DNA from: Dehalococcoidia bacterium
GTDB taxonomy: Bacteria > Chloroflexota > Dehalococcoidia > Bin125
Direction: 5' to 3'
Assembly (NCBI GenBank): GCA_963663235.2
Contig: CAXXNO010000005.1
Location: 96,001-160,000 of the forward strand
Length of the DNA: 64,000 bases
The notes under the pieces were generated by a model that had not been told where the DNA came from, did no database searches, and saw only the letters and a program-made list of their open reading frames with translations. The translations under genes and the position numbers were made by a program. Positions 17,334 through 63,250 of the stretch are shown one piece after another (the stretch's first letter is position 1; every line of letters begins with the position of its first letter).

Positions 17334-17451
17334 CGCTCGATCCTTCCTCCTGGTTCTGCCGAATCCCGCTTCCGCCACCCGGATGGCGTACCCGCCCCGG
17401 GCATGATCGGCATCATACATGACTTACGAAACGGGTTGCCCACTTCGCAAG

Positions 17452-19122: not shown

Positions 19123-20154
19123 ATGCAAATCGGCTCCTGCATGAACACCCACGGCGTGGTCTTCCGCAGCGAGACGGAGTTCTGGGTGGAGAACCTCGCC
19201 GCCGACGACATGCGCCCCATCGAGTTCGCGCAGCGCGCCGAACGCCTCGGCTATCATTCCCTCTGGTTCCCGGACCACGTCACGCTGCCGCTCCAAACCA
19301 CCGATGTCCACATCGCCAATCCGGAGTCGGGCAAGCGCCACTACGTCGAGCGGCCCGAGATGCTCGACGCGCTCGTCACGATGGGCGCTGTGGCGGGCGC
19401 TACCAGCACCATCAAGCTGGCCACCTCCGTGCTGATCTCCCCCTACCGCCCCCCTCTTCACGACGCCCGCCAGTTCGCCACGGTCGACCGCCTGTCCAAC
19501 GGCCGCCTCATCGCCGGCGTCGGGGCCGGCTGGGCCAAGGAGGAGTTCGACGCCCTCCACCTCAACTACGCGAAGCGCGGCGAGATGACCGATGAGTGCA
19601 TCCAGGTCTACAAGACCGCCTGGCAGGACGGGACCCCCAACTTCGATGGGGAGTTCTACAGCTTCCACGACATCACCATGGACCCCAAGCCGGTGCAGAA
19701 GCCGCGGCCGCCCATCGTCTTCGGCGGCATGTCCAAGGCCGGAGCCCGCCGCGCGGCCCGCCTCTGCGACGGCTTCTACCCCATCTTCATGCACCCCGGG
19801 GCGCGGCCCCACGAGCTCGATCACTTCCAGGATGAGATCCGGCGCGAGGCCCAGCGCATCGGCCGAGACCTCTCCGACTTCATGATGATCGGGCAGGTGG
19901 CCGCCCGCATCACCGACGCCAACGATCCGCACTTGCAGCGCAAGGTGCGCCCGATCTGCGAGGGCACGCCGGAGATGATCCTCTCCGACCTCCAGGAGTT
20001 CGCCGAGGCCGGCTACTCCTTGATGGTCGTGCATCAGGATTGCCAGACCAGCACCGCCGAGGAGCTGTTCGAGCGCACGGAGCAGTTCGGCCGGGAGATC
20101 ATCCCCCTCGCCCAGGACTTCAAGCCGGGCGGCGAGTGGAAGCCGGTCCCCTAG
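19123..20154 (+). CDS. LLM class oxidoreductase, probably F420-dependent (Rv2161c-like)
   Basis: SLWFPDHV, ATVDRLSNGRLIAGVGAGW.KEEF, PKPVQKPRPP motifs. Confidence 0.88.
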   Translation: MQIGSCMNTHGVVFRSETEFWVENLAADDMRPIEFAQRAERLGYHSLWFPDHVTLPLQTTDVHIANPESGKRHYVERPEMLDALVTMGAVAGATSTIKLATSVLISPYRPPLHDARQFATVDRLSNGRLIAGVGAGWAKEEFDALHLNYAKRGEMTDECIQVYKTAWQDGTPNFDGEFYSFHDITMDPKPVQKPRPPIVFGGMSKAGARRAARLCDGFYPIFMHPGARPHELDHFQDEIRREAQRIGRDLSDFMMIGQVAARITDANDPHLQRKVRPICEGTPEMILSDLQEFAEAGYSLMVVHQDCQTSTAEELFERTEQFGREIIPLAQDFKPGGEWKPVP

Positions 20155-20426: not shown

Positions 20427-22259
20427 TTAGGCCGTAAAGACGATATCCCCGTAGTCGATGAGATTGTCGCCACGGTAGTGAAAGCCGCTGACGTTGTCGC
20501 GGAAAATGTACTGCGGGTTCGTCCAGGCGATGTGCTGGAAAGGGGCGTCTTCCGCGAGTATGCGCTGGGCCGTGTCGTAGAACGCCAGCGCATCGGGGGC
20601 CTGGTCATCCCCCACTTCAATCCCGGACTGCACGGCCGCCCAGAAGTCATCCCATTGCGCGCGGCCCGTGTCGTAGAAAGCAAAGTTGATCGGCGAGCCG
20701 CTCTGGAAGAAGAGCTGGAGGTAGTAGGGCATGGTCTGCACGAAGGACGCGGTGCGGACCAGGAACGTGGGCTGCCGCGCCTCCGGTGTGCCGCGGTTCT
20801 CGTCGGCGGCCGCGGGCGGCAACGCCACCAGGTTCAAGCGGATGCCGGCTTTGGCCGCCGACTCGCGCATGAGGACCGCGGCCTCCTCCTGGTCGGGGAG
20901 GGCCAGCTCGTACGACATGTCGATTTCAAAGCCGTCCGGCACTCCGGCCTCCGCCAGCAGCTCCTTGGCCTTGTCGATGTCGGTGACGTATTGGTGAGAG
21001 TGCTCCGGCGCGGCGCCGGGGATCGGCGGCCAGACTTGCGAAAATGCACGGATCGCCAGGCCCTCGTAGACCGTGTTGACCATGCCGTCGTACGGGATGA
21101 TGTAGGCCAGCGCTTGACGGACCCGCGTATCTCCCCACACTTCTTCGTTCATGTTCGTCACGGAGAACAGGTTCAAGTTCGTGTCGGCCTTGGGAACGTA
21201 GGTCCCTTCCTCGCCCTGCGTGCTCGCCTGCTCGCGCGCCAGCATCGCCTTGGCGATGTGCACGTCGCCCCGGCGGACCAGCGCCAGCCGGTTGGCGCTC
21301 TCCGGCACCACCCGCCAGATGATCCGCTCGATCTGCGCGGGGTTGATCCCGTCGCCCCGGGCCCAGCCCTCGTTGCGGAGGAAGACCGCCTGTTCCCCTT
21401 GCGTGAAGATCTCGAGCTGGTAGGCCCCGAAGCCGTGGGAGTGCGTGACCGCCCACTCTTGCGACCACGGGTCGTCCTCCGTGGCGTTCTCCTTCATCAA
21501 CTTGGAGTCGACGATCGCGCCCACGTGCTGGGCCATGATCGTCTGCTCGAACGTGGGGTACGGCCGGTTGAGCCGGAACTGCACCGTGAAATCGTCGATC
21601 CGCTGGATCTGGTCCGGATCAAAGAGCTCCGCCGCGAACGCCGAGATGAAGGCTCCCAGCCCCCCCGCCGCAATCTTGCGCTCCATGGTGTAGGTCACGT
21701 CGTCGGCCGTGAACGGGTTGCCGTTATAGCTGACCACGCCTTCGCGCAGCGTGAATTCGTAGGTCGTCCCGTCTTCGCTCTTGCTCCAGTCAACCGCCAG
21801 CCGCGGTTCCCAGGGGCCCGTTATATCCTCCCCCAAGAACCCGCCTGGCTGCTCCACGATCTTGTTGCGGATCAACGTGGAGTGGAGCATCACGTTGGCC
21901 TCTTGGCTCTCGTGGGTATTCGCCAACTCCTGGTCCAACGTGACGAACAGGTTGGCCTGCGCGACGACCAGATCGCGCTCCACGTCCACCGCCGCCTCTT
22001 CGGCCGCCTGCTCGATCTCTTCCGCCGCTTGCTCGACGGCCGCGACCTGCTCCTCCTCGGTGACCTGCGCCTGCGCCTGATCTTCTTCGATCACCTGCGC
22101 AATGGCTTGCGATATCGCTTCGTCGTCGTCGTCGCCGCAACCGACCAGGGCCAGTCCGGCCGCTCCCAGCCCGGCCACCCCCGAGGCGGCCAGCGCCCGT
22201 CGCCGCGACATCCGCTGGCCAAGCATTCGCCGGTAAGGGCTCACATACCGCTCTTTCAT
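20427..22259 (-). CDS. ABC transporter substrate-binding protein, family 5, Tat lipoprotein (copy 2)
   Basis: Same length (1833 nt) and motifs as copy 1, with scattered substitutions. Confidence 0.92.
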   Translation of the reverse strand: MKERYVSPYRRMLGQRMSRRRALAASGVAGLGAAGLALVGCGDDDDEAISQAIAQVIEEDQAQAQVTEEEQVAAVEQAAEEIEQAAEEAAVDVERDLVVAQANLFVTLDQELANTHESQEANVMLHSTLIRNKIVEQPGGFLGEDITGPWEPRLAVDWSKSEDGTTYEFTLREGVVSYNGNPFTADDVTYTMERKIAAGGLGAFISAFAAELFDPDQIQRIDDFTVQFRLNRPYPTFEQTIMAQHVGAIVDSKLMKENATEDDPWSQEWAVTHSHGFGAYQLEIFTQGEQAVFLRNEGWARGDGINPAQIERIIWRVVPESANRLALVRRGDVHIAKAMLAREQASTQGEEGTYVPKADTNLNLFSVTNMNEEVWGDTRVRQALAYIIPYDGMVNTVYEGLAIRAFSQVWPPIPGAAPEHSHQYVTDIDKAKELLAEAGVPDGFEIDMSYELALPDQEEAAVLMRESAAKAGIRLNLVALPPAAADENRGTPEARQPTFLVRTASFVQTMPYYLQLFFQSGSPINFAFYDTGRAQWDDFWAAVQSGIEVGDDQAPDALAFYDTAQRILAEDAPFQHIAWTNPQYIFRDNVSGFHYRGDNLIDYGDIVFTA

Positions 22260-22391
22260 CGCTCGATCCTTCCTCCTGGTTCTGCCGAATCCCGCTTCCG
22301 CCACCCGGACGGCGTTCCCGCGCCTGGGCATGATCGGCATCATACATGACTTACGAAACGGGTTGCCCACTTCACTAAGGAAGAGCGGACG

Positions 22392-52212: not shown

Positions 52213-52809
52213 GTGTTCACCGGCATCGTCGAGGAGGTCGGAACGGTGCGGGAGGCGGAGCGCGGCGTCCTTCGCATCGCCGCCCCGCAGATCCTGGCCG
52301 ACGCTCATCTCGGCGATAGCATCGCCATCAACGGCGTGGACCTGACCATCGCGGAGCGGGACGGGGAGACCTTTCTCGCCAACGTGATGCCGGAGACCTA
52401 CCGTCGCAGCAACCTCGAAGCGCTCAACACCGGCGATCGGGTCAACCTGGAGCGCTCCCTCCGGCCAACGGACCGGCTCAGCGGGCACATCGTGCGCGGC
52501 GTGGTGGAGGGCACCGGCGTCCTGCTGGAGCTGCGCCCGGAGGAGGACGCCCTGATTGCGACCTACTCGGCGTCCCCGGAGCTCTTGCGCTTCATGGTGG
52601 TGAAGGGCCCGGTCTGCGTCGATGGCGCCAGCCTCACCATCGTCGCCAAATCGGACACCACCTTCTCTGTTTCGCTGGTGCAATATACTCAGCAGCACAC
52701 CAATCTCACTCAGCGGGAGCCGGGCGATCAGGTCAATCTGGAGACCGATATCCTGGCCCGCTACGTGGGGCAATTGCTGGAGGATCGCGGGCTGGGAGAT
52801 CGCTCCTAG
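52213..52809 (+). CDS. ribE: Riboflavin synthase
   Basis: MFTGIVEE, GDSIAINGV, VNLER, VNLETD motifs. Confidence 0.95.
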   Translation: MFTGIVEEVGTVREAERGVLRIAAPQILADAHLGDSIAINGVDLTIAERDGETFLANVMPETYRRSNLEALNTGDRVNLERSLRPTDRLSGHIVRGVVEGTGVLLELRPEEDALIATYSASPELLRFMVVKGPVCVDGASLTIVAKSDTTFSVSLVQYTQQHTNLTQREPGDQVNLETDILARYVGQLLEDRGLGDRS

Positions 52810-52839
52810 CCGCGCCGTCCCTCGGCGCAGCGGCTGAAC

Positions 52840-54210
52840 ATGGCAACGCGTAAGCGCACTCCGAAGTCCTCAAGCCCCCCTTCGACGGATCGCCGCCGCG
52901 GCGACCCCTTCTGCACGGTGGAAGAGGCGATCGCCGAGTTTGGGCAGGGACGCTTCGTCATCATCACCGACGATCAAGATCGCGAAAACGAAGGCGATCT
53001 CTGTATCCCCGCCCAGTACGTCACCCCCGAGGCGATCAACTTCATGGCCAAGTACGGCCGCGGGCTCATTTGCGTCGCCATGAGCGGCCGGCGGCTGGAC
53101 CGCCTGGGCTTGCCCCTCATGGTCGGGGAAGATCACAATGACTCGCAGTTCGGAACCGCCTTCACGGTGTCGGTCGAGGCCCGCAAAGGCGTCAGCACCG
53201 GCATCTCCGCCGCCGACCGCGCCCGCACCGTCCACGTGCTCATGGCGCCCGATAGCAAGCCCGGGGATCTCGCCGTACCGGGCCACATGTTTCCCTTGCG
53301 CGCCCGCGACGGCGGCGTGCTCGTGCGGGCCGGGCAGACGGAAGCCAGCGTCGATCTCTGCACGCTTGCTGGCCTGCACCCCGGCGCCGTCATCTGCGAG
53401 GTCATGAAGTCCGATGGAGCCATGGCCCGGCTCCCGGACCTCGTCCGCTTCTCCCGGCGCCACGGCATCAAGATGATCAGCATTGACGAGATGATCAAGT
53501 ATCGCTTCCGCACCGAGAAGCTCGTCGATCGCATCACCGATGCCACGCTCCCCACGCGCTACGGCTCCTTCCGCGTCGTCGGCTATGAGGTCCACGGCGC
53601 CCCGGATGAACACGTGGCGCTCGTGATTGGCGACCTCTCCCAGCCGGATCCGGTGCTCGTCCGCGTCCATTCCCAATGCGTCACCGGCGATGTCTTCCAT
53701 TCGCTGCGCTGCGACTGCGGCGAGCAGATGGAAGCCGCCCTGCAGCGCATCGCCGAGGAGGGACGCGGGGCGTTCATCTATATGCGTCAGGAGGGACGCG
53801 GTATCGGGCTGCACAACAAGCTGCGCGCCTACGCCCTGCAAGACGGCGGCATGGACACGGTGGAGGCCAATCTGGCGCTCGGTTTGCCCGTCGACCGCCG
53901 CGACTACGGCATCGGGATGCAGATCTTGCGCGACCTGGGTATCTCCAGGATCCGCCTGCTCACCAACAACCCGGCCAAACGCGCCGGCCTCACCGGCTAC
54001 GGCCTCGAAGTCGTGGAGCGCGTCCCCCTCACCGCCGAACCGAACCCCTACAACGCGGGCTACCTCGCTACCAAGCGTGAAAAACTCGGGCACCTCTTGG
54101 ACGATATCCCGGCGGACATGGCCAAGCCCGACGCCGACGCCGGCCCCGCACCCGCGCCCCGCAAGAAAGCGGCGCGTCCGGCCCGGCGACGTCGGACCCG
54201 GCGCACCTAA
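52840..54210 (+). CDS. ribBA: Bifunctional DHBP synthase / GTP cyclohydrolase II
   Basis: DRENEGD, TGISAADR, RVHSQC.TGD..SLRCDCG, QEGRGIGL, LLTNNP motifs. Confidence 0.95.
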   Translation: MATRKRTPKSSSPPSTDRRRGDPFCTVEEAIAEFGQGRFVIITDDQDRENEGDLCIPAQYVTPEAINFMAKYGRGLICVAMSGRRLDRLGLPLMVGEDHNDSQFGTAFTVSVEARKGVSTGISAADRARTVHVLMAPDSKPGDLAVPGHMFPLRARDGGVLVRAGQTEASVDLCTLAGLHPGAVICEVMKSDGAMARLPDLVRFSRRHGIKMISIDEMIKYRFRTEKLVDRITDATLPTRYGSFRVVGYEVHGAPDEHVALVIGDLSQPDPVLVRVHSQCVTGDVFHSLRCDCGEQMEAALQRIAEEGRGAFIYMRQEGRGIGLHNKLRAYALQDGGMDTVEANLALGLPVDRRDYGIGMQILRDLGISRIRLLTNNPAKRAGLTGYGLEVVERVPLTAEPNPYNAGYLATKREKLGHLLDDIPADMAKPDADAGPAPAPRKKAARPARRRRTRRT

Positions 54211-54213
54211 CCC

Positions 54214-54696
54214 ATGCCGCGCGTCTTCGACGGCAACCGCGACGCCACCGGCCTGCGATTCGCCATCGTCGCCGCCCGCTTCAACATCTTCGTGACGGAG
54301 CGGCTCTTGAACGGCGCCCTCACCACGCTGCGTGACCACGGCGCCGCCCACGACACCGTGGATGTCTTCTGGGTGCCGGGCGCCTTCGAGATCCCCCTCC
54401 TCGCCCGCACCGCCGCCGAGAGCGGCCGCTACGATGCCGTGATCTGCCTCGGCGCCGTCATCCAGGGCGAAACCGACCATTACCGCCTCGTCGCGGAGGC
54501 GGTCGCCCGCGGCGTCGCGCGTGCCGCCTGGGAGACCGGCGTCCCCTGCATTTTCGAGGTCCTCGCGGCCCCCAGCGTTGAACTCGCTGTTGCCCGGGCC
54601 GGCGGCGCGGCCGGCAACAAGGGCGAGGACGCCGCTTTGACTGCCATCGAGGTCTGTCGCGTGCTTGCCGCCGCTCGCCGCTCCGACGACGCCTAA
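54214..54696 (+). CDS. ribH: Lumazine synthase
   Basis: ARFN, VPGAFEIP, LGAVIQGETDH, GNKG motifs. Confidence 0.95.
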   Translation: MPRVFDGNRDATGLRFAIVAARFNIFVTERLLNGALTTLRDHGAAHDTVDVFWVPGAFEIPLLARTAAESGRYDAVICLGAVIQGETDHYRLVAEAVARGVARAAWETGVPCIFEVLAAPSVELAVARAGGAAGNKGEDAALTAIEVCRVLAAARRSDDA

Positions 54697-54759
54697 TCGG
54701 CCCGCGCCCGCCGCCCCGTCGTCGGAGATTCCCAGGCGTCTCGATGCCGGTGACCAAGG

Positions 54760-54830
54760 TTGATCAATCCCACGTGCCTACTTACAATCGCGGAGCTTCG
54801 CCCAGATTTCAGGAGATTTGCCCAGATTTG
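54760..54830 (+). promoter_or_regulatory. Sigma70-type promoter plus three 10-bp-phased AGATTT direct repeats
   Basis: TTGATC(54760)-17 nt-TACAAT(54783); CCCAGATTTC AGGAGATTTG CCCAGATTTG (54801-54830) covers the RBS and TTG start. Confidence 0.6.
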
Positions 54831-55523
54831 ACGTCCATCGCAACCCGATCACGCCACGCTGAAACGGACTGGCTCGGACTGGGTCAGGCCTGCCGCCTCT
54901 TGGGTGTCAACGAATCCACCCTCCGCCGCTGGGCCGATGCGGGCACGGTGCGGAGCTTCCGAACCCCCGGCGGGCACCGGCGCTTCCCCCGGGCCGAACT
55001 GCGCCGCCTCATGGCCCCGCTCCCCGCCGCGGGCGACCGCCCCCCGTTGGACGGAGAAGCGCTCCAGCACATCCGCGCTCTTCTCGATCGCCGCGACCAC
55101 GACCCACAGCCCTGGCTTGACCCGCTGACCGTCGAGACCCGCGGCACTCTGGGCCGACTGGGCCGCCGGACCTTGGAGTTGGTGAGCCGCTCGGCTCATC
55201 CCGACGCCGACGCTGACGCTGACGCTGACGCCGATGCCGACGCGCTCGCCCCGGACGCTGCGGCGCTGGGCCGCGAATACGGCCGCATCCTGCGCGGCGC
55301 TGGTCTCAGCCTGTCCGACGCGGTCTCGGCCTTCGCCTATTTCCGCCACGGGATGGCGGAGGCCGTAACGGCGCACGCCCAGGCTCTCCGCTTGCCCACC
55401 GATGCCGCCGCCGACCTCTCGGAGCGCGTGTCGGTCTTGGAGGATCAGGTGCTGGTCGCGCTGGCCGGCGAGTACGAACGTGAGACGCCGCTTGCGGAAC
55501 CGGCGCCGCTCCCGGAACGCTAG
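54828..55523 (+). CDS. BldC/excisionase-like (MerR-type HTH) regulator with C-terminal helical domain
   Basis: WLGLGQACRLLGVNESTLRRWADAG.VRSFRTPGGHRRF; AGGAG RBS before TTG 54828. Confidence 0.8.
   Translation: MTSIATRSRHAETDWLGLGQACRLLGVNESTLRRWADAGTVRSFRTPGGHRRFPRAELRRLMAPLPAAGDRPPLDGEALQHIRALLDRRDHDPQPWLDPLTVETRGTLGRLGRRTLELVSRSAHPDADADADADADADALAPDAAALGREYGRILRGAGLSLSDAVSAFAYFRHGMAEAVTAHAQALRLPTDAAADLSERVSVLEDQVLVALAGEYERETPLAEPAPLPER
55203..55244 (+). repeat. In-frame hexamer repeat encoding (DA)7
   Basis: GACGCC GACGCT GACGCT GACGCT GACGCC GATGCC GACGCG. Confidence 0.85.
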
Positions 55524-55541
55524 GACCGGTGCACAGGGGAG

Positions 55542-56258
55542 GTGGTGGCCGTCGTGGCCTATTACCCGGTCTTTCTGGATGTCACCGACCGTCCTTGCCT
55601 CGTCATCGGTGGCGGCGAGGTGGCTCTCCAGAAAGTGCGCGGGCTGATCGCGGCCGACGCCGCGATCACCATCGTCAGCCCCGGCCTCCACCCGGATCTC
55701 GTCGACTTGGCCGCGCAGGGCCGGATCAACCATCTGCCCCGCAGCTACGTCTCTGGCGATTCCCAAGGCTTCGACATCGTCATGATCGCCACCGACGATC
55801 GCTCCGCCAACGCCGCCATCCGCGAGGAGAGCCGCGGGCTGGGCGCTTGGGTGAACGCCGCCGATGACCCCGCCAACTGCGACTTCATCCTGCCCTCCGT
55901 GGTCCGGCGCGGCCTCATGACCATCGCCATTTCGACCGGTGGCGCCAGCCCGGCCATGGCCCGCCGCGTGCGCGAGGAGTTGGACGCCTACTTTACCGAG
56001 GACTTTGAGCCCCTCGCCGAATTGCTGGCGGAGGTCCGCAACGACCTCAAGCGGCGCGGCCTGCTCCTCCAGATCGATCAGGAAACCTGGCAGCGCGCCA
56101 TCAACGGCCCTCTGCGCGCGCTGCTCGCCCAACGGCGCTGGGGTCAGGCCAAGGCGCTCCTCCTCTCCCGCCTGGGTGCGCCGGTTGCCCCCAACGATCC
56201 ACCTCCAGAGGAATCGCTGGCGCCGCCGCTCGAACAACCGTTGAGGAAATCGTCGTGA
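55542..56258 (+). CDS. Precorrin-2 dehydrogenase / sirohydrochlorin ferrochelatase (SirC/CysG-N)
   Basis: YYPVFL, VIGGGEVA, VNAADDP..CDF, AISTGGASP motifs. Confidence 0.92.
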   Translation: MVAVVAYYPVFLDVTDRPCLVIGGGEVALQKVRGLIAADAAITIVSPGLHPDLVDLAAQGRINHLPRSYVSGDSQGFDIVMIATDDRSANAAIREESRGLGAWVNAADDPANCDFILPSVVRRGLMTIAISTGGASPAMARRVREELDAYFTEDFEPLAELLAEVRNDLKRRGLLLQIDQETWQRAINGPLRALLAQRRWGQAKALLLSRLGAPVAPNDPPPEESLAPPLEQPLRKSS

Positions 56259-56317
56259 CCTTGATCGCGGCAGGCATCTCGTATCGCACGGCCTCCGTCG
56301 CTCTCGATGTCGGCTAG
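56255..56317 (+). pseudogene. hemA: Glutamyl-tRNA reductase stub (internal deletion)
   Basis: GTG overlapping sirC TGA reads TLIAAGISYRTASVA (HemA N-terminal GxxHxTAxV-like) then LDVG*; occupies the expected hemA slot. Confidence 0.72.
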
Positions 56318-57233
56318 CGTGGAGGCGCTGCGGCTCGGTACGCGCCGGAGCGCGCTGGCCGGGCGGCAGACGCAGGAAGCGGCCGACGCCCTCGCGGCGC
56401 TCGGCGTCGCTACGCAGGCCGTCATCTGCCGAACCCAGGGCGATCTGGACCGCACCACCCCGCTGCCGGAACTCGGAGGACAGGGGGTCTTCGCCCGCGC
56501 CATCGAGCAGACCCTTGTGGACGGCGGCATCGATGTCGCCGTCCACAGCGCCAAGGACTTGGAGCTGGATCTGCTGGACGGCACGCAACTGGTGGCCTTC
56601 CTGCCCCGAGCCGATGTCCGCGACGTCCTGGTCAGTCGCGATGCCCTCACGCTTGAGCGGCTCCCCGCCGGCGCCCGCCTCGGGACCAGCAGCCGGCGTC
56701 GAGCGGGCCAGGTGCGCGCCTGGCGTTCCGACCTCCAAGTGGTCGACATTCGCGGCAACGTCGACACCCGATTGGCCAAGGTCGCTCGTGCGGACTACGA
56801 CGCCACCATCCTCGCCGCCGCTGGGCTCGCCCGGCTCGGCCGCCTCGACGCCGTCGCGGAGTACCTCAGCATCGACCGCGTGTTGCCGGCGCCCGGACAA
56901 GGGGCCATCGCTCTCCAGGCCCGCCGCGCCGATGCCCGCACCGTGAGCCTCCTGCGCCGCATCAACCATGAGCCCACCGCTGTGGCGGTCAGGACGGAGC
57001 GTGCGTGTCTGCGCGCCCTCGGCGCGGGCTGCTCGCTGCCGGTCGCCGCGCTCGCGCACGTGCGCGGGACGGCCGTGACCGTCGCCGGGATCGTCGTCGA
57101 TGAGCACGATGGTCGCCTCATCCGCGCCCAACGCAGCGGCGACGCGGCCGATCCGGAGGCGGCTGGCGCCGCGCTGGGGGAAGCGTTGCTTTCGCAGGGT
57201 GCCGGTGCGCTGATCCGGGAGGCGGTGTCATGA
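56307..57233 (+). CDS. hemC: Hydroxymethylbilane synthase
   Basis: GTRRSALA, VHSAKD, GTSSRRR, RGNVDTRL, PAPGQGA, GAGCSLP motifs. Confidence 0.95.
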   Translation: MSASVEALRLGTRRSALAGRQTQEAADALAALGVATQAVICRTQGDLDRTTPLPELGGQGVFARAIEQTLVDGGIDVAVHSAKDLELDLLDGTQLVAFLPRADVRDVLVSRDALTLERLPAGARLGTSSRRRAGQVRAWRSDLQVVDIRGNVDTRLAKVARADYDATILAAAGLARLGRLDAVAEYLSIDRVLPAPGQGAIALQARRADARTVSLLRRINHEPTAVAVRTERACLRALGAGCSLPVAALAHVRGTAVTVAGIVVDEHDGRLIRAQRSGDAADPEAAGAALGEALLSQGAGALIREAVS

Positions 57234-58774
57234 GTGCGGACGGCGGCCGCGGCTTCGTGAGTCTCGTGGGCGCCGGACCCGGCGATCCCGGCCTGATCAC
57301 GGTCGCCGCCCTCGATCGCCTCCGCGACGCCGATGTCGTCGTCTACGACCGCCTCGTCAATCCCGCCTTCCTTGCGGAGGCGCGGCCGGACGCGGAACGC
57401 ATCTTCGTCGGCAAGGCCCCGGACGCGCACACGCTATCCCAGGACCGCATCGACGATCTGCTGGTCGAGAGGGCGCGAGCGGGTCGCCGCGTGGTCCGGC
57501 TCAAGGGTGGCGACCCCTTCGTCTTCGGGCGCGGTGCGGAAGAGGCCCAGCGCCTGGTCCAGGACGGCGTCGATTTCGATGTCGTGCCGGGGGTCACGTC
57601 CGCGCTGGCAGCGCTGGCCTACGCCGGCATCCCGCCGACCCACCGGCGCCATGCCTCGTCGTTCACGGTCGTGACCGGCCATGAAGATGCCACGAAGCAG
57701 GAGCCAGCGGTCGATTGGGCCCGCATCGCACAAGGCGCGGACACGCTCATCGTCTTAATGGCGCGCCACTCGCTCCCATCCATCGCCGACCGCCTGATCG
57801 CCGGCGGCCGTCCTGCCGAAACGCCCGCCGCGGTGATCGAATGGGGCACCACGCCGCGACAGCGCGTGGTCGAGGCGACGCTGGCGACCGTCGCCGCCGC
57901 CGCCGATCGAGCCGGGCTCGATGCCCCCGCCGTGATCGTCGTCGGTGATGTCGTCCGCCTCCGGGACGGCCTGCGCTGGTTCGATCGACGTCCGCTGTTC
58001 GGGAAGCGCGTTCTGGTGACGCGCACCCGCCGGCAGGCCGGCGAGATGTCACGCTTGCTGATGCGCGAGGGGGCCGATCCGGTCGAGTTTCCCGCCATCG
58101 GGCTCGCCCCCGCCGATCCCGCCGCGGCCCAGGCGGCGGCCCGGCGGCTCGCTGCCGCCGGCTACGACTGGGTTGTCTTCACGAGCGCCAACGGCGTGCA
58201 CGAGTTCTTCCGCCATCTTGACGCCGTGCAGCTGGACAGCCGCGCCTTCGGCGCGGCGCGCCTCGCCGTCGTCGGACCGGCGACGGCCCGCGCCTTGCAC
58301 GAGTACGGCCTCGTCCCCGATGTTGTCCCGGACCGCTTCGTCGCCGAGGCCTTGCTCCAGGCTCTGGCCGATGTTCCTCTGGAGGGCGCACGCGTGCTCT
58401 TGGCGCGCGCCGAGGATGCGCGCGCGCTCTTGCCGGAGGGGCTGCGCGCTCGCGGCGCGCTGGTCGAGGATCTGCCGCTCTACACCGCCCGTCGCCCCGC
58501 GACCGCGGACTCGGCGCTGATCGGGCGCCTCGAAAGGGGCGAGATCGATATCGTCACCTTCACCGCCTCATCCACGGTTCGTGGCTGCCTCGACCTGCTC
58601 GACGGGCGCCGCGAGCTGATCGAGTCTCCGCTGGTCGCCTGCATCGGACCAGTGACGGCGGAGACGGCCCGTTCGCTCGGCCTGAACGTTGATCTGGTAA
58701 GCGAGGAACACACGGTTCCTGGACTCGTCGCCGCCCTGCGGCGGCGCTTCGAGAAGGTGGTGTCGCATGCTTGA
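57230..58774 (+). CDS. cobA: Uroporphyrinogen-III C-methyltransferase / uroporphyrinogen-III synthase fusion (CobA-HemD)
   Basis: [12 protein letters not shown] and [13 protein letters not shown], then VLVTR, FTSANGV, FTASSTV, CIGPVT. Confidence 0.95.
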
Positions 58775-59777
58775 GACGAGACAGGCCGCCGGGCTTGATC
58801 TCCCGCTCCGGCTCCGGCGTTTGCGCCGGACGACGTCGATGCGCCGCATGCTCCGCGAGACGGTCCTGAGCCCAGCGGACTTTATCTATCCCCTCTTCGT
58901 GACGCACGGCCACGATGTCCGCCAGCCCATCGCGTCCATGCCCGGCCAGTTCCGGCTCTCCCTTGATCAACTGCCGGGGGAAGCGCAGGAGTTGCGGCGC
59001 CTCACGATCCCCGCGCTCCTGTTGTTCGGCCTGCCGGCCGCCAAAGATCCGCGCGGGTCGGAGGCCTACGCCGCGGACGGCATCGTGCAGCAGGCGGTCC
59101 GCGTGCTCAAGGACGCCGACCCCGATCTCGTTGTCATCACCGACGTCTGCCTCTGTGAGTACACCGACCACGGGCATTGCGGTGTGATCGGCTCCACAGG
59201 CGAAGTCGAGAATGACCCCTCCGTCGAACTGCTGACGGCGACGGCCCTGAGCCAGGCCGAAGCCGGCGCCGACATCGTCGCGCCCAGCGACATGATGGAC
59301 GGCCGCGTGCGCGCCATTCGCTCCGCTCTGGACGCTTCCCGCCTCCAGGAGGTGGCGATCCTCGCCTACGCGGCGAAGTTTGCCTCCGCGTTCTACGGCC
59401 CCTTCCGAGAGGCGGCGGACTCGACCCCGGCGTTCGGCGACCGCCACGGCTATCAACTGGACCCGCCCAACGCACGCGAGGCGTTGCGCGAGATCGCCCA
59501 GGATATCGACGAGGGCGCGGACCTGGTGATGGTGAAGCCCGCGCTGCCCTATCTCGACCTCATTCGCCGGGCACGTGAGCGCTTCGATCGGCCGCTGGTG
59601 GCGTACAACGTCAGTGGCGAGTACGCGATGCTCAAGGCGGCCGCGGCGAACGGCTGGCTGGACGAGCAAAACGCCGTCACCGAGGTACTGACCGGCATCA
59701 AGAGGGCCGGCGCCGATCTCATCCTCACCTACCACGCGAAGGAGATGGCACACTGGCTGCAGTCATCGGCGGGCTAG
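58767..59777 (+). CDS. hemB: Porphobilinogen synthase
   Basis: [39 protein letters not shown] motifs. Confidence 0.96.
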
Positions 59778-60532
59778 ACGCCGTCGATCCCTCCACGTTC
59801 CGCGCCGTCGCTTTCGATTGCTACGGCACGCTCATTGACTTCGATGAGCGCGCCTTCGCCCCGGCGCTCAGGCGGCTGCTGGATCGGCACGGCCTCGGGC
59901 ACGTCGACGCCCAGCAGCTCTGGGACGACTGGATCAAGGCGGCCAAGGAGTTCTCCAAGCTCCTCGGGGTTGACCCGGCGCGCCCACTCGATGGCCTCGA
60001 GCCGCCCTTCCGGTCCTTCGCGGAGAGTTGGCCCCGCTTCTTCGACCTCGTGTTCCAACGCTCGCGGATCGAAGGGATCGCGCCGCAAGTCGTGGTGGAC
60101 TACCTGTTCGCGGAGCTCAGCCAAGCGCCGCCCTATCCGGATGCGCCGGAGGTGATCGCCGCCCTGCGCCGGACCGGCATGACCGTCGCTATCGCCAGCA
60201 ACGCCGACGACGCGCACCTCTACGCGGCGCTCGATCACGCTGGCATCACCGCCGATGTCGTGATCTCGTCGGAGTCGGCCCGCTCGTACAAGCCCCGCCG
60301 CCCATTCTTCGAGGCGCTCAGCCGGGCCTTGGATCTCCCCCTCGAAGCGATCCTTCATGTCGGTGACCATCCGCTGGCGGACGTCACCGGGGCGCGCAAC
60401 GTTGGCATGTCCGTCTACCACGTGCAGCGCTACCAGCGCCCCCCGCACGATCACACGCCCGCCCACGAACCCACGTGGCAGTTCCCGGACTTGCGTGGCC
60501 TGCTGACGCTTTTCGGAATCGGCTCCGCCTGA
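59753..60532 (+). CDS. HAD-superfamily hydrolase (haloacid dehalogenase-like), probable CTG start
   Basis: Frame of ORF 60050..60532 extends upstream without stops to motif [13 protein letters not shown]; also ASNAD, YKP, HVGD..D; AAGGAG 8 nt before CTG 59753. Confidence 0.8.
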
Positions 60533-60878
60533 CCGCCCTGCCCCGATCTCGCGCGGCCTTCCAGGTGGCGCAGCGCGTGCTGCCCGCCTGGCCGCCGCCT
60601 TCTGCGCCTTCGCACGCTGGGCGGAGACCGAGCGAGTGGTCTCCCGCGTTGGCTCCATGCTTACGCCGTTCTTCCGGACCCAAACGCCGACGGACGCCGA
60701 GACCGCCGCCCCCGACACGACCGCCTACGCGGGCTTCGTGCACGCCGCCCGCGCCGCCGGCGTCATTCTGGCCCCCTCCCAGTTCGAGGCGATGTTCTGC
60801 TCGTTCGCCCACGACAACGCCGTCATCAACGCCACCGCCGCCGCTCTGGCTTCGGCCTCCGCGCCACCGCGTCCCTGA
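60529..60878 (+). pseudogene. hemL: Glutamate-1-semialdehyde aminomutase remnant (internal deletion)
   Basis: N-terminal PRSRAAFQVAQRVLP joined out of frame to C-terminal RVGSMLTPFF...GVILAPSQFEAMFCSFAH; PLP-binding core absent. Confidence 0.85.
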
Positions 60879-60890
60879 CGATAATCCTCG

Positions 60891-60910
60891 TTATCCACCC
60901 GTTCTCCACC
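60891..60910 (+). promoter_or_regulatory. Two DnaA-box-like 9-mers upstream of dnaN
   Basis: TTATCCACC (60891) and TTCTCCACC (60902) versus consensus TTATCCACA. Confidence 0.45.
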
Positions 60911-60986
60911 CTCTTCTGTCGCTCCCTTGGACGATCGGCGGGATCCGTCCCTCCTCCCGCATCCGGTCGGCTACAATGAATGAGTA

Positions 60987-61010
60987 AATTGCATACATTT
61001 GTATGCAATT
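60987..61010. promoter_or_regulatory. Perfect inverted repeat (candidate operator) between -10 box and dnaN RBS
   Basis: AATTGCATACA-TT-TGTATGCAATT; TACAAT at 60972; AAGGAG at 61012. Confidence 0.6.
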
Positions 61011-61026
61011 GAAGGAGATCGACGCG

Positions 61027-62157
61027 GTGAAACTGGCGACGCAGCAGGAGGCGCTTCAACGCGGGCTCAACACCGTCGGCCGTGCCGTAGCAGTCCGCAG
61101 CACCCTCCCGCAGACCTCTCATGTCTACGTCGCTGCAGAGGGCGAGCAGGTCAAGCTCGTCGCGACGAATCTGGAGATCGCGATCACCTGTTGGGTGTCG
61201 GCCCGGGTCGATGAGCCCGGCGCGATCACGATTCCCGCCCGCCTCCTCACCGAGTTCGTCTCCTCGCTGCCGCCCGCCGAGATCGCCTTCAGCGTGGCCC
61301 CACGATCCCGCCAGGCGCAGATCGTCTGTGCCCGCAACGAAGCCACCATCACCGGCATGGACGCCGATGACTTCCCGCCCATCCCCTCCATCAGCGATGG
61401 CGACACCTTCCGCCTCGAGCCGCAGGCCCTCCGCCAGGCCATCGAGCATGTGGTCTTCGCCGCCGCCAGCGATGACAGTCGCCCCGTCCTCACCGGCGTC
61501 CAACTCAAGATCGAAGACGGCCGCCTGACGTTGGCCGCTGCCGATGGCTTCCGATTGGCCGTCTATCACTTGAACATCGCGGAGCAACCGCCCAGTGCCA
61601 TCGAGATCATCGTGCCCGCCCGCGCTCTACAGGAGTTGAGCCGCCTCCTCCCCGATCAGGAGGAGGCGGCCACGCTTCAGCTCAACAGCGTCCGCAGTCA
61701 GATCCTGTTCAAGCTGGAGGACGTGGAGCTGACCGCTCAGCTCATCCAGGGCACCTTTCCCAGCTACCAGCAGCTCATCCCCTCCGAATATCAGACCCGC
61801 GCCACGCTCGACGCCGCCGAGTTTCTGCGTGAGGCCCGCACGGCCGCGGTCTTCGCCCGCGACGGCAGCGGGATCGTGCGCGTCGTGCTCGCCGCCGGCG
61901 ACAGCGGCGCTGGCCGCGTGACCATCTCCGCGCGGGCCGAAGAGCAGGGCGATCACCAGGGCGAGATGGACGCCGAGATCGAAGGGGAGGACGCGCGGAT
62001 CGCCTTCAACAGCCGCTACTTGCAGGACGTCTTGCAGGTCCTCGGCGGGGGGCGCCTGGCGCTCGAGACCACCGGCCCGTCGAACCCCGGCGTCTTCCGG
62101 CCTCACGACCGCGAAGACTACGTCCACGTCATCATGCCCATGTTCGTCCAGTGGTGA
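61027..62157 (+). CDS. dnaN: DNA polymerase III beta clamp
   Basis: ATNLE, SRPVLTGV, AADGFRLA, LIQGTFPSY, AFNSRYL, IMPM motifs. Confidence 0.96.
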   Translation: MKLATQQEALQRGLNTVGRAVAVRSTLPQTSHVYVAAEGEQVKLVATNLEIAITCWVSARVDEPGAITIPARLLTEFVSSLPPAEIAFSVAPRSRQAQIVCARNEATITGMDADDFPPIPSISDGDTFRLEPQALRQAIEHVVFAAASDDSRPVLTGVQLKIEDGRLTLAAADGFRLAVYHLNIAEQPPSAIEIIVPARALQELSRLLPDQEEAATLQLNSVRSQILFKLEDVELTAQLIQGTFPSYQQLIPSEYQTRATLDAAEFLREARTAAVFARDGSGIVRVVLAAGDSGAGRVTISARAEEQGDHQGEMDAEIEGEDARIAFNSRYLQDVLQVLGGGRLALETTGPSNPGVFRPHDREDYVHVIMPMFVQW

Positions 62158-62218: not shown

Positions 62219-63250
62219 CTACGGCACCGCCATCCACTCGCCGCCCGGCTTGAAGTCTTTGGCGATCGGGATGATCTCCTGCCCGAACTGCTCTATACGC
62301 TCGAACACCTCGGCGGCAGTGCTGGTCTGACAATCTTGATGTGCGACCATCAGAGAGTAGCCCGCCTCGGCGAACTCCTGGAGGTCGGCGAGGATCATCT
62401 CCGGCGTGCCCTCGCAGATCGGGCGTACCTTGCGCTTCAAGTGCGGATCGTCGGCGTCCGTGATGCGGACGGTCACCACAGCCATCATCATGAAATCGGA
62501 GAGGTCCCGGCCGACGCGTTCCGCTTCGCGCCGAATCTCGTCCTGGAAGCGATCCAGATCGTGCGGCCGGGACCCGGGGTGCGAGAACATCGGGTAGAAG
62601 CCGTCGCAGAGCCGCGCCGCGCGGCGGGCGCCGACCAGGGACTGCCCGCCGAAGACGATGGGCGGGTGGGGCTTCTGCACGGGCTTGGGGTCCATGGAGA
62701 GGTTGTCGAAGTTGTAGAACTCGCCGTGGAAGGCGACGACGTCGTCCGCCCACGCGCGCTTGTAGATCTCGATGCATTCGTCGGTCATGTCGCCGCGCCG
62801 GTCGTAGGGCAGGCCCAGCGCGTCGAACTCCTCCTTGGCCCAGCCCGCGCCCACGCCGGCGATCACCCGGCCGTTGGAGAGCCAGTCAACGGTGGCGAAC
62901 TGGCGGGCGTCGTGGAGCGGCGGGCGGTAGGGCGAGATGAGCACCCCGGGCGCCAGCTTGACCCGCTCGGTCGTCACCGCCACCGCGGCCATGGTGGCCA
63001 GGGCGTCGAACATGACCGGCTTCTCGGGGTAGTGCCGTTTCCCCGTCTCTGGGTTGACGACGTTCACGTTGGTGGTCTTCGTCGGAAAGGCGACGTGGTC
63101 CGAGAACCAGAGCGAATGGAAGCCCACCCGTTCGGCGAGCCGGGCAAACCGCACCGGCTCAATGTCCTGCGGCGGCAGCGACTCCAGCCACATCTCCGTC
63201 TCGCTGCGAAACACCACCCCGTGGGTGTTCATGTAGGTGCCAATATGCAT
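62219..63250 (-). CDS. LLM class oxidoreductase, probably F420-dependent
   Basis: Close paralog of 19123..20154 (MNTHGVVFRSETE...RKVRPICEGTPEMIL). Confidence 0.88.
   Translation of the reverse strand: MHIGTYMNTHGVVFRSETEMWLESLPPQDIEPVRFARLAERVGFHSLWFSDHVAFPTKTTNVNVVNPETGKRHYPEKPVMFDALATMAAVAVTTERVKLAPGVLISPYRPPLHDARQFATVDWLSNGRVIAGVGAGWAKEEFDALGLPYDRRGDMTDECIEIYKRAWADDVVAFHGEFYNFDNLSMDPKPVQKPHPPIVFGGQSLVGARRAARLCDGFYPMFSHPGSRPHDLDRFQDEIRREAERVGRDLSDFMMMAVVTVRITDADDPHLKRKVRPICEGTPEMILADLQEFAEAGYSLMVAHQDCQTSTAAEVFERIEQFGQEIIPIAKDFKPGGEWMAVP

Follow-up and report, generated by a model that had tools for sequence, protein, structure and literature searches.

Enteric bacteria with a mutation in hemA or hemL grow on 5-aminolevulinate (ALA) that is fed to them and taken up via the dipeptide permease, and ALA auxotrophs of Vibrio fischeri reportedly colonise squid. 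Eight ALA are needed for each molecule of haem. A life on external precursors was also predicted by Shelton et al. (2019; PMC6461909): the sections of that study used here give 180 predicted precursor salvagers, name Clostridium scindens, C. sporogenes and Treponema primitia as such, report dependence on ALA in culture for three species and describe 78% of the salvagers with habitat data as host-associated. Here, we describe a tetrapyrrole operon from a Dehalococcoidia bacterium, located in a stretch of 64,000 nucleotides ("the window"; contig CAXXNO010000005.1, positions 96,001 to 160,000), in which most of hemA and hemL is deleted and the genes for the use of ALA are retained.

The tetrapyrrole operon contains remnants of hemA and hemL

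The locus was compared with those of eight relatives, five hemA-bearing ones and the genomes G007, G043 and G011. In the five hemA-bearing relatives the order sirC-hemA-hemC-cobA/hemD-hemB-HAD-hemL-dnaN is unbroken. In the window, where all genes of the locus are encoded on the forward strand, the head of the locus is formed by a gene for a BldC/MerR-like HTH regulator (54744-55523; NF033787 HTH_BldC 50.7 bits, under the cut-off of 77), which is kept upstream of sirC in all five hemA-bearing relatives inspected; none was found at this spot in the loci of G007, G043 or G011. The downstream boundary is dnaN (61003-62157), which is syntenic in the five hemA-bearing relatives with 72-78% identity. 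The sequence-only reading had described sirC, hemC, cobA-hemD and hemB as intact, and this was confirmed by the scores of whole family models, by which intactness was judged: sirC (55542-56258), encoding a precorrin-2 dehydrogenase of the CysG N-terminal type, scored 146.1 bits with TIGR01470 cysG_Nterm (cut-off 62.3) and is 73% identical to that of the hemA-bearing relative G004; hemC (hydroxymethylbilane synthase, 56319-57233) scored 289.7 bits with TIGR00212 (cut-off 164); the cobA-hemD fusion (uroporphyrinogen-III C-methyltransferase and uroporphyrinogen-III synthase, 57230-58774) scored 306.8 bits with TIGR01469 (cut-off 185), and HemD models match its residues 256-509; hemB, encoding the ALA-consuming porphobilinogen synthase (58767-59777), scored 495.4 bits with NF006762 (cut-off 297). 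These four consumer genes span ~4.2 kb, are free of stops and frameshifts and are all above the curated cut-offs. The motifs GAGPGD and MVKPA are visible, which we take to be those of CobA and HemB, respectively. With SirC/CysG-N and CobA both present, the siroheme branch is represented, and to judge from the family name SirC is probably also a sirohydrochlorin ferrochelatase. The gene between hemB and the hemL remnants (59753-60532) encodes a HAD-type hydrolase (TIGR01428 100.4 bits, under the cut-off of 125.4), is conserved at this position and is syntenic in seven of the eight relatives' loci. Its start is probably the CTG at 59753; the first ATG, GTG or TTG in frame does not occur before 60050, AAGGAG is found 8 nt upstream of the CTG, and the arrangement is shared by G004.

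What is left of hemA is a stub of 20 codons plus stop (56255-56317), in which the first 15 and the last five codons of the glutamyl-tRNA reductase gene are fused; it reads VTLIAAGISYRTASVALDVG before the stop. Its GTG overlaps the stop of sirC as GTGA, 12 of its residues 1-15 match the N-terminus of the HemA of G004 (MTLLAAGISHRTASV), with 79% identity to G004 at the DNA level across 43 nt. At its end, the last five codons (ALDVG) and the stop are followed by a single C and a GTG. In all five relatives inspected, native hemA ends in FALEER, FGVEDD or LGVEDG and a stop, followed by 1-2 nt and the TTG, GTG or ATG of hemC; the stub end repeats this pattern and, therefore, the deletion of hemA is in frame. 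Since the same pattern of stop, 1-2 nt and start is found in the five relatives, hemC probably starts at GTG 56319, with ATG 56307 as a possible alternative. As hemA measures 1239-1314 nt in these relatives, about 392-417 codons were removed, and with only 20 codons left the catalytic N-terminal, the NADPH-binding and the dimerisation domains are missing. The stub and its overlap with sirC had already been recognised in the sequence-only reading; the two deletions that it proposed are both real, with the correction that the one in hemA preserves the frame.

The remnants of hemL lie in two frames. The N-terminal one comprises 19 codons (60529-60585), of which 10 are identical to the HemL N-terminus of G004, and its CTG overlaps the stop of the HAD gene as CTGA. 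The C-terminal one comprises ~100 stop-free codons (60576-60878), matches positions 326-418 of TIGR00713 with 49.9 bits and retains APSQFEAMF; no class-III aminotransferase fold of full length that exceeds the cut-off of 527.3 bits is found at the locus. That the ends are joined out of frame and overlap the upstream neighbour had been proposed before and holds true; that neighbour is, however, the HAD hydrolase gene and not hemB, as had been implied. The junction, previously placed at ~60587, was located at about 60576-60585. Compared with G004, about 918 nt are missing, i.e. the middle three quarters of the gene, presumably including the PLP-binding lysine (HemL numbering). The two remnants overlap by ~10-13 nt, which may be a microhomology. 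The C-terminal remnant is 52-60% identical to intact orthologues, and intact orthologues from different genera are 54-68% identical to each other. Judged from the sequence, the loss of hemL is recent, because the decay of the remnant is no greater than the divergence among intact orthologues.

The junctions were checked in independent contigs. Logan contigs of the runs X15, X16 and X20, which stem from three studies, one of them possibly based on the source sample, cover positions 55500 to 59169, 59300 or 57529 and positions 59609 or 59638 to 61100; they carry the deleted form at both junctions, gap-free and with 0-5 differences. Further, a related strain (X1), ~96% identical, was found in a run labelled as seawater metagenome. 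At the hemA junction, 154 extra letters are the sole difference of its contig and, therefore, X1 also lacks most of hemA. Of the 151 differences between this one contig and our genome, the 38 listed comprise 24 synonymous and 14 other changes, with 23 of the 38 at third codon positions, an excess of synonymous changes whose underlying divergence may partly predate the deletion.

Search for other ALA-forming genes and for an ALA importer

The whole assembled genome (14 contigs, 91.89% complete) was searched for intact hemA, hemL and ALA synthase genes, and none was found elsewhere in the assembled 91.9%. PF05201 (GlutR_N) had no match genome-wide, and the best match of TIGR01035, 31 bits, fell on a Rossmann stretch. 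The best matches of TIGR00713 in the genome scored 340, 338 and 296 bits, compared with a cut-off of 527.3 and with 577-605 bits for the true HemL of relatives; these three HemL-like paralogues share no more than 36-39% identity with the HemL of a relative. A tblastn search of the whole genome found nothing with a relative's HemA and only the paralogues and the remnant with a relative's HemL. The best match of TIGR01821 for ALA synthase was 247 bits (cut-off 338.55). It is the single alpha-oxoamine synthase of the genome, for which no model was above its cut-off; as an ALA synthase it was rejected, since the models for serine palmitoyltransferase (458 bits) and BioF (372 bits) outscore TIGR01821. 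Its gene is flanked by genes for a PAP2 phosphatase and an epimerase/3-beta-HSD-type reductase. None of the 61 genomes of the family exceeded the TIGR01821 cut-off, and a match with a similar score was found in all 61, with or without hemA.

An ALA transporter was not identified. The suggested import of ALA by family-5 binding proteins encoded in the window (15501-17420 and 20427-22370) was not supported: they scored 88-90 bits with the DppA model, compared with a cut-off of 1005, and are thus only generic, and no obvious permease genes adjoin them in the crude ORF list. ALA above 100 nM was undetectable in several biological samples according to the part of Shelton et al. (PMC6461909) considered here.

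Distribution in the family and fate of siroheme

Among the 61 genomes of the family, hemA was found above the cut-off in 15, hemL in 14, hemB (PF00490) in 60 and cobA-hemD in 61. Thus, hemA is absent from 46 of the 61, single-contig assemblies among them. Each relative that bears hemA or hemL has a single above-cut-off match, which is located in this operon. All 45 genomes of the genera g3, g7, g8 and g9 lack hemA and hemL, yet have hemB and cobA-hemD. In two hemA-less loci, those of G007 and G043, sirC adjoins hemC and the HAD gene adjoins dnaN directly, and remnants are not found. The operon is intact in five relatives, and the same two genes are absent in the sister clade, as the comparison with sister genomes called for in the sequence-only reading has shown. 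The remnant-free loci and the 45 hemA-less genomes that keep hemB and cobA-hemD indicate that this state looks stable over genus-level divergence. A tree of CobA-HemD groups the 16 sampled rows from g3, g7 and g8 in one clade (100/100) and has our genome as sister to the hemA-bearing genus g5 (93/88); its position beside g5 and apart from g3, g7 and g8 argues for a second, recent and independent loss. Random hits on two of the seven genes that run from sirC through hemL would strike hemA together with hemL in one case out of 21, and the sister clade lacks this pair as well. An uncharacterised gene is found near the operon in each of the 45 older hemA-less genomes (in 44 of 45 within ~3.5 kb of cobA-hemD) and, therefore, their persistence is no clean proof that salvage alone suffices. 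Besides the lack of remnants, the siroheme decarboxylase gene has also gone from the older sister clade.

The consumer side of our genome has gaps: searches with known models found neither an NIR_SIR sulfite/nitrite reductase nor UroD, ferrochelatase, CbiX or CbiC; CbiC (PF02570), the sole cobamide marker searched, also had no match in four relatives. A fused AhbA/B-like protein (G000:C12:204458-205651) passes PF17805 and is under the NCBIfam cut-offs (68 vs 125 and 45 vs 140 bits). The best match of the AhbD model in the genome was MoaA (50 bits), on which a 46-bit match of the AhbC model was also seen, and from these matches no AhbC/D-like radical SAM enzyme was recognised. The genome encodes COX1. 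The use of siroheme in this genome is, hence, only partly explained. In the three genomes of g5, the nearest hemA-bearing ones, NIR_SIR is likewise missing while the operon is complete and the AhbAB-like gene present; therefore, siroheme has a use in the lineage.

Discussion

Our findings are the two deletions, no further ALA-forming gene in the assembled 92%, intact consumers and recurrence in relatives. From these, we consider it probable, though well short of certain, that the bacterium is auxotrophic for ALA, which it would salvage to make siroheme and perhaps haem (a "tetrapyrrole precursor salvager"), apparently without cobamide synthesis. Two options had been given in the sequence-only reading, auxotrophy for ALA and replacement of the lost steps by a different route; neither of the refuting conditions set there was observed, the inference stands, and auxotrophy is the likelier of the two. 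In the proposed scenario, the C5 pathway would have been lost recently through one deletion that took almost the whole of hemA, in frame, and another that took the three quarters in the middle of hemL. The operon would still be read as one unit, in which the stub, with its start overlapping the sirC stop and its stop one base before hemC, may serve translational coupling. ALA supplied by a host or by microbes in the vicinity would be imported and converted to siroheme by the retained HemB, HemC, HemD-CobA and the CysG-N-type SirC; the fused AhbA/B-like siroheme decarboxylase encoded elsewhere in the genome could possibly lead on to haem.

Three other explanations have to be weighed. The completeness of 91.89% and the 14 contigs leave some room for intact hemA and hemL in the unassembled 8%, or for the deleted form being an artefact of binning or assembly, but we regard this as very improbable: the remnants lie at the single native locus, where the relatives have their only above-cut-off match, the deleted form recurs, with 0-5 differences, in contigs of three studies, and tblastn revealed nothing for HemA and only paralogues and the remnant for HemL. 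More weight, although still little, is given to an ALA route that is neither C5 nor C4, either by the SPT/BioF-like alpha-oxoamine synthase from glycine and succinyl-CoA or by one of the three glutamate-1-semialdehyde-aminomutase-like transaminases, for example acting on 4,5-dioxovalerate. It is equally doubtful that the family as a whole, in which the 46 genomes keep hemB-hemC-hemD-cysG, apparently by selection, without hemA, hemL or ALA synthase, holds such a route and that our genome is the second, recent lineage switching to it. A clade of 46 out of 61 genomes that lack hemA and keep hemB and the common pathway is large for dependence on an external metabolite that, as far as the consulted part of PMC6461909 reports, is hard to detect; candidate enzymes exist with the alpha-oxoamine synthase under all cut-offs and the three paralogues of 296-340 bits, and formation of ALA by dioxovalerate transamination is an old proposal for which enzyme activities are reported in the excerpt of PMC13564367 available to us. 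However, genomes with and without hemA and hemL alike have the alpha-oxoamine-synthase-like match (61 of 61) and, across the genera, one of the HemL-like paralogues, the other two paralogues are common to the hemA-bearing g5 and, therefore, none of the candidates tracks the loss. Moreover, the genes next to them (PAP2 and epimerase; enoyl-CoA hydratase and amidohydrolases; gltB) point to functions in lipid metabolism or catabolism, and the portion of PMC6461909 used describes no hidden route in the only salvagers cultured.

Decay of the whole operon is likewise unlikely. Siroheme and haem would then be obtained ready-made or unneeded, hemA and hemL would merely be the first genes lost, and the rest would be intact for lack of time. 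This would agree with the recent loss, with the lack of a siroheme-dependent sulfite/nitrite reductase and of recognisable later haem enzymes in the genome, and with a preprint whose accessible part predicts a substantial share of haem auxotrophs among the Chloroflexota (10.1101/2021.01.11.426183). On the other hand, the four consumer genes are without stop or frameshift and above the cut-offs, the in-frame deletion preserves the sirC/stub/hemC overlap and spacing signals, and the differences to strain X1 are mostly synonymous (among the 38 listed of 151). Further, g5 keeps the full operon and the AhbAB-like gene without NIR_SIR, and the older clade keeps the truncated operon in 45 of 45 genomes.

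If ALA auxotrophy holds true, ALA would be a metabolite exchanged within the community or host that this bacterium inhabits, and ALA salvage as a life style would reach beyond cobamide-making gut Firmicutes into marine Chloroflexota, with siroheme and perhaps haem as their products. The remnants would represent a loss caught early and the older sister clade the end state, together a dated series of the outsourcing of a cofactor pathway from the top down. For cultivation, members of the group are predicted to require ALA, and perhaps also haem, in the medium, and the large hemA-less clade is a defined place to seek an unrecognised ALA source or ALA importer.

Like the mutants of enteric bacteria and V. 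fischeri, in which loss of hemA or hemL leads to life on external ALA, reportedly even inside an animal host, the bacterium lacks hemA and hemL; unlike in those engineered or selected mutants, the loss is natural, is present in contigs from several studies and comes without a Dpp-type system tied to ALA. With the predicted haem auxotrophs of Kim et al. (10.1101/2021.01.11.426183), as far as the preprint was available, it shares the uncultured aquatic lineage and gapped tetrapyrrole synthesis, and the preprint names Chloroflexota as a group with a substantial share of such auxotrophs. In the acI genomes covered by that work, however, not one gene of the common middle part is present and most of those of the upper and lower parts are missing; here, that middle part is intact, and what is missing is the ALA-forming module alone. 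The loss is neither unique nor unprecedented, since hemA is missing from 46 of the 61 genomes of the family and a class of ALA salvagers has been described before. In the portion of Shelton et al. (PMC6461909) considered, ALA-type salvagers keep the downstream steps, need added ALA for tetrapyrrole production in culture and are mostly host-associated; as in these, all ALA-forming genes are gone and hemB, hemC and hemD are kept, within a genome that is 91.9% complete. That class covers cobamide producers with a complete corrin-ring and nucleotide-loop pathway, mostly Firmicutes, whereas here CbiC was not found and the branch ends in siroheme, possibly haem. Also unlike them, our genome, in which both genes can still be recognised by their remnants, belongs to a Dehalococcoidia-like family in which the loss occurred twice.

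Deletion of hemA and hemL from the tetrapyrrole locus

The genome studied (G000) comprises 2.75 Mb in 14 contigs with a contamination of 0.73%, and the G+C content is ~70%. The tetrapyrrole locus is located on the + strand at 54.7-62.2 kb of the window. Its first gene encodes a BldC/MerR-like regulator, followed by a CysG-N-type sirC (55542-56258; CysG N-terminal domain match of 146 bits, cut-off 62), a 20-codon ORF (56255-56317), hemC (ending at 57233), a cobA-hemD fusion (57230-58774), hemB (58767-59777), a HAD hydrolase gene (ending at 60532), ~350 nt of hemL debris (60529-60878) and dnaN (61003-62157), all on the + strand. The gene order merR-sirC-hemA-hemC-cobA/hemD-hemB-(HAD)-hemL-dnaN was common to all five inspected relatives from this family (G003, G004, G005, G009 and G012), and compared to their locus the window lacks hemA and hemL only. 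The frame of the HAD hydrolase contains no ATG, GTG or TTG before 60050; on inspection of 59741-59760, a CTG at 59753, located 8 nt downstream of an AAGGAG within the end of hemB, was found to be the probable start codon, and G004 is arranged alike. The closest named records to the DnaN of the window (72-77% identity) were from Dehalococcoidia or Chloroflexota MAGs. Directly upstream of the regulator gene are three + strand ORFs (52213-52809, 52840-54210 and 54214-54696, spanning 52213-54696), which, from their N-terminal sequences, are putative riboflavin synthesis genes (ribE, ribBA and ribH); similar ORFs are also present upstream of the locus in G004 and G012.

The 20-codon ORF is a stub of hemA. 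Its first 15 codons correspond to the hemA start, with 12 of 15 residues identical to HemA of G004, and its GTG overlaps the stop codon of sirC. The stub ends with ALDVG*, followed by one base and then GTG; in five relatives, native hemA ends with FALEER*, FGVEDD*, LGVEDG* and the like, and hemC starts 1-2 nt past the stop codon. Since the stub keeps both the native hemA start and the native spacing between the hemA end and hemC, the deletion, which removed ~392-417 codons, was in frame. The translational signals of sirC, the stub and hemC remain, and by these retained signals the stub would keep hemC translationally coupled.

A CTG that overlaps the stop codon of the HAD hydrolase gene opens the hemL remnant; G004 has GTG at this position. 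Nineteen codons of the N-terminal part are recognisable, and the last ~100 codons follow in another frame, with APSQFEAMF intact and no stop. Relative to G004, ~918 nt are missing, a stretch that presumably holds the PLP-binding lysine (HemL numbering). The N- and C-terminal homologies overlap by ~10-13 nt; this may represent a microhomology that gave rise to the deletion. Between the C-terminal remnant and intact orthologues from other genera, identity is 52-60%, compared with 54-68% among these orthologues. The remnant has thus hardly decayed, and the loss appears to be recent relative to the divergence of the genera.

The sequence-only reading had claimed that both genes were excised from the operon, and this was borne out by the remnants at the syntenic locus and by contigs from three studies: Logan contigs of the sequencing runs X15, X16 and X20 span both junctions in the deleted form, ungapped and differing from the window at 0-5 positions; one of the three runs might be the source sample of G000. 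A further run, X1, labelled as seawater metagenome, contained a strain ~96% identical to the window (28+56 differences across 55500-57523). As 59801-61100 is barely or not at all covered by X1, this comparison is confined to the hemA side. The X1 contig matched both flanks of 56300/56301, which is exactly where the hemA junction is placed, with 154 additional letters between them and, therefore, the X1 strain seems to hold a longer hemA remnant. As 154 is not divisible by three, this remnant would be out of frame, which suggests stepwise erosion. JGI metagenomes scanned with SirC revealed no relative with >68% identity. Other runs, in which the sequence had a small share, were labelled as seawater, sediment and sponge metagenomes and are not taken as evidence of habitat.

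Search for other ALA-forming enzymes in G000

A search of the 91.9%-complete genome revealed no intact copy of hemA, hemL or an ALA synthase gene. For hemA, the PF05201 profile gave no match in G000, the best match of TIGR01035 (31 bits) was on a Rossmann stretch, and tblastn with HemA of G004 found nothing. For hemL, TIGR00713 matched three paralogues with 340, 338 and 296 bits (cut-off 527.3) in addition to the remnant, and tblastn with HemL of G004 likewise found the remnant and the paralogues, the latter with 36-39% identity. The three paralogues were rejected as a HemL replacement, since all are shared with hemA-bearing relatives and are found in catabolic or gltB contexts; in a cell that lacks glutamyl-tRNA reductase, no substrate is known for them. 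The 296-bit protein, a HemL-like class-III aminotransferase (G000:C6:178863-180224, - strand, outside the window), is encoded ~340 nt from gltB, the large glutamate synthase gene, and a paralogue of this score class was found in every genus of the family.

The ALA synthase model TIGR01821 matched the sole alpha-oxoamine synthase of G000 (G000:C6:223974-225254) with 247 bits (cut-off 338.55). The protein scored 458 with the serine palmitoyltransferase model and 372 with BioF, and its gene is flanked by genes for a PAP2 phosphatase and an epimerase/3-beta-HSD-type protein. TIGR01821 matches of ~228-275 bits were found in 61/61 family genomes, none of them over the ALA synthase cut-off. Because of its better scores with serine palmitoyltransferase and BioF, its neighbours and the similar match throughout the family, it was rejected as a specific ALA synthase replacement.

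The window also encodes two paralogous family-5 solute-binding proteins of 639 and 647 aa (15501-17420 and 20427-22370, both on the - strand), which match the DppA, NikA and GsiB models weakly (~80-90 bits). These matches are generic only and lend no support to a role as ALA importers. A crude ORF list contained no obvious permease genes adjoining them; ORFs with similar N-termini are present at 19123-20154 (+) and 62219-63250 (-).

Distribution of hemA and hemL in the family

The family survey covered 61 genomes, G000 and 60 others, as a sample of a larger group. HemA was found over the cut-off in 15/61: in genera g2 (3/3), g4 (1/1), g5 (3/3), g6 (1/1) and g10 (7/7), and in none of g1, g3 (0/2), g7 (0/33), g8 (0/9) and g9 (0/1). 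HemL was over the cut-off in 14/61, in the same genera; the miss is G048, which is 84% complete and also accounts for the one miss of hemB (60/61). CobA-hemD was present in 61/61. In the hemA-less G007 (g8) and G043 (g7), sirC adjoins hemC, and dnaN comes after the HAD gene; translation of the gaps at these two loci revealed no hemA or hemL remnant. A maximum-likelihood tree of CobA-HemD (single gene, midpoint root) was calculated from 33 rows, of which 30 belong to the family (G000 among them) and three are named outgroups, leaving out the partial-gene rows L119, L101, L087 and L071. Genera g3, g7 and g8 formed one clade (100/100), and G000 was placed with the hemA-bearing genera, as the sister of g5 (93/88), on the same side as the outgroups. 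Together with the visible remnants, the tree therefore indicates two independent losses of the hemA/hemL pair, an old event and a recent one in the window.

In the old hemA-less clade (g3, g7, g8 and g9), a gene for a conserved protein of ~310 aa, here called gene X, is located directly upstream of sirC (L139:11056-12006 (-) in G007, L140:11180-12343 (-) in G043 and L141:3308-4195 (+) in G011). Identity between the copies of G007 and G043 is 62%. Gene X matched no Pfam family and no solved structure by sequence (best E-value 0.048, antibody chains, which is noise); the nearest Atlas clusters were unnamed or GH43/GH32-like at 0.90-0.91. It is located at most ~3.5 kb from cobA-hemD on the same contig in 44/45 genomes of the clade, the 45th being split over contigs, and was found away from the locus in g10 (7/7) and g2 (1/3). 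Since gene X was not found in G000 and is also present in the hemA-bearing g10 and g2, it was rejected as an ALA enzyme replacement in G000; it was not found in g4, g5 and g6 either.

Possible uses of the retained genes

The sirC-type protein together with CobA would give siroheme. UroD, CbiC, CbiX and an AhbD-like enzyme matching better than MoaA were found in none of the five genomes G000, G004, G009, G007 and G043; ferrochelatase was found in G043 only, and COX1 in all five. The AhbC model gave a 46-bit match on the MoaA protein of G000. Outside the window, G000 encodes a fused AhbA/AhbB-like siroheme decarboxylase (G000:C12:204458-205651, - strand), adjoining a Crp-type regulator. This decarboxylase (PF17805) was found in 15/61 genomes, restricted to G000 and hemA-bearing genera, and in 0/45 of the old hemA-less clade; its distribution thus follows that of hemA and hemL, with the exception of G000, which keeps it. 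A NIR_SIR-type sulfite/nitrite reductase was found in 56/61 genomes, including 45/45 of the old clade, and not in G000, g4 and g5. Therefore, the old clade seems to have kept siroheme for reductases and to have dropped the decarboxylase along with hemA and hemL. In G000 and its nearest relatives, the decarboxylase is the only recognisable candidate for a siroheme user.

Discussion

ALA auxotrophy with salvage is the most economical explanation for G000. The earlier proposal of either auxotrophy or a replacement route is supported, since no other ALA-forming gene was found. That hemB and the genes after it persist would also fit an ALA route that we did not recognise; we regard such a route as unlikely. 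Similarly improbable is that the operon is in early decay. Of the 151 differences between the X1 strain and the window, 38 are listed; 24 of these are synonymous and 14 non-synonymous, and 23 fall at third codon positions. Within this subset, taken from a single contig, the pattern is consistent with sirC and hemC remaining under purifying selection. A hemA or hemL copy could lie in the missing part of the incomplete assembly; with the deleted form in contigs from three studies, we consider this very unlikely.

Auxotrophy with salvage has precedent. Passages of the study by Shelton et al. designate 180 species as tetrapyrrole precursor salvagers (PMC6461909), of which 78% of those with habitat data are host-associated. 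There, corrinoid production by C. scindens and C. sporogenes required the addition of ALA, and ALA boosted T. primitia. We found no paper on hemA/hemL loss in this group; the supplementary salvager tables of PMC6461909 may hold Chloroflexota cases. Siroheme genes are reported in marine Dehalococcoidia in sections of PMC7506110 that are silent on hemA, and no haem terms occur in PMC10444878. G000 would be a new member of this described class of salvagers, and its family context is informative. Unlike the salvagers of Shelton et al., G000 does not appear to make cobamides, as judged from CbiC, which was not found, and it is of a Dehalococcoidia-like lineage; moreover, in G000 the loss event is caught with its remnants.
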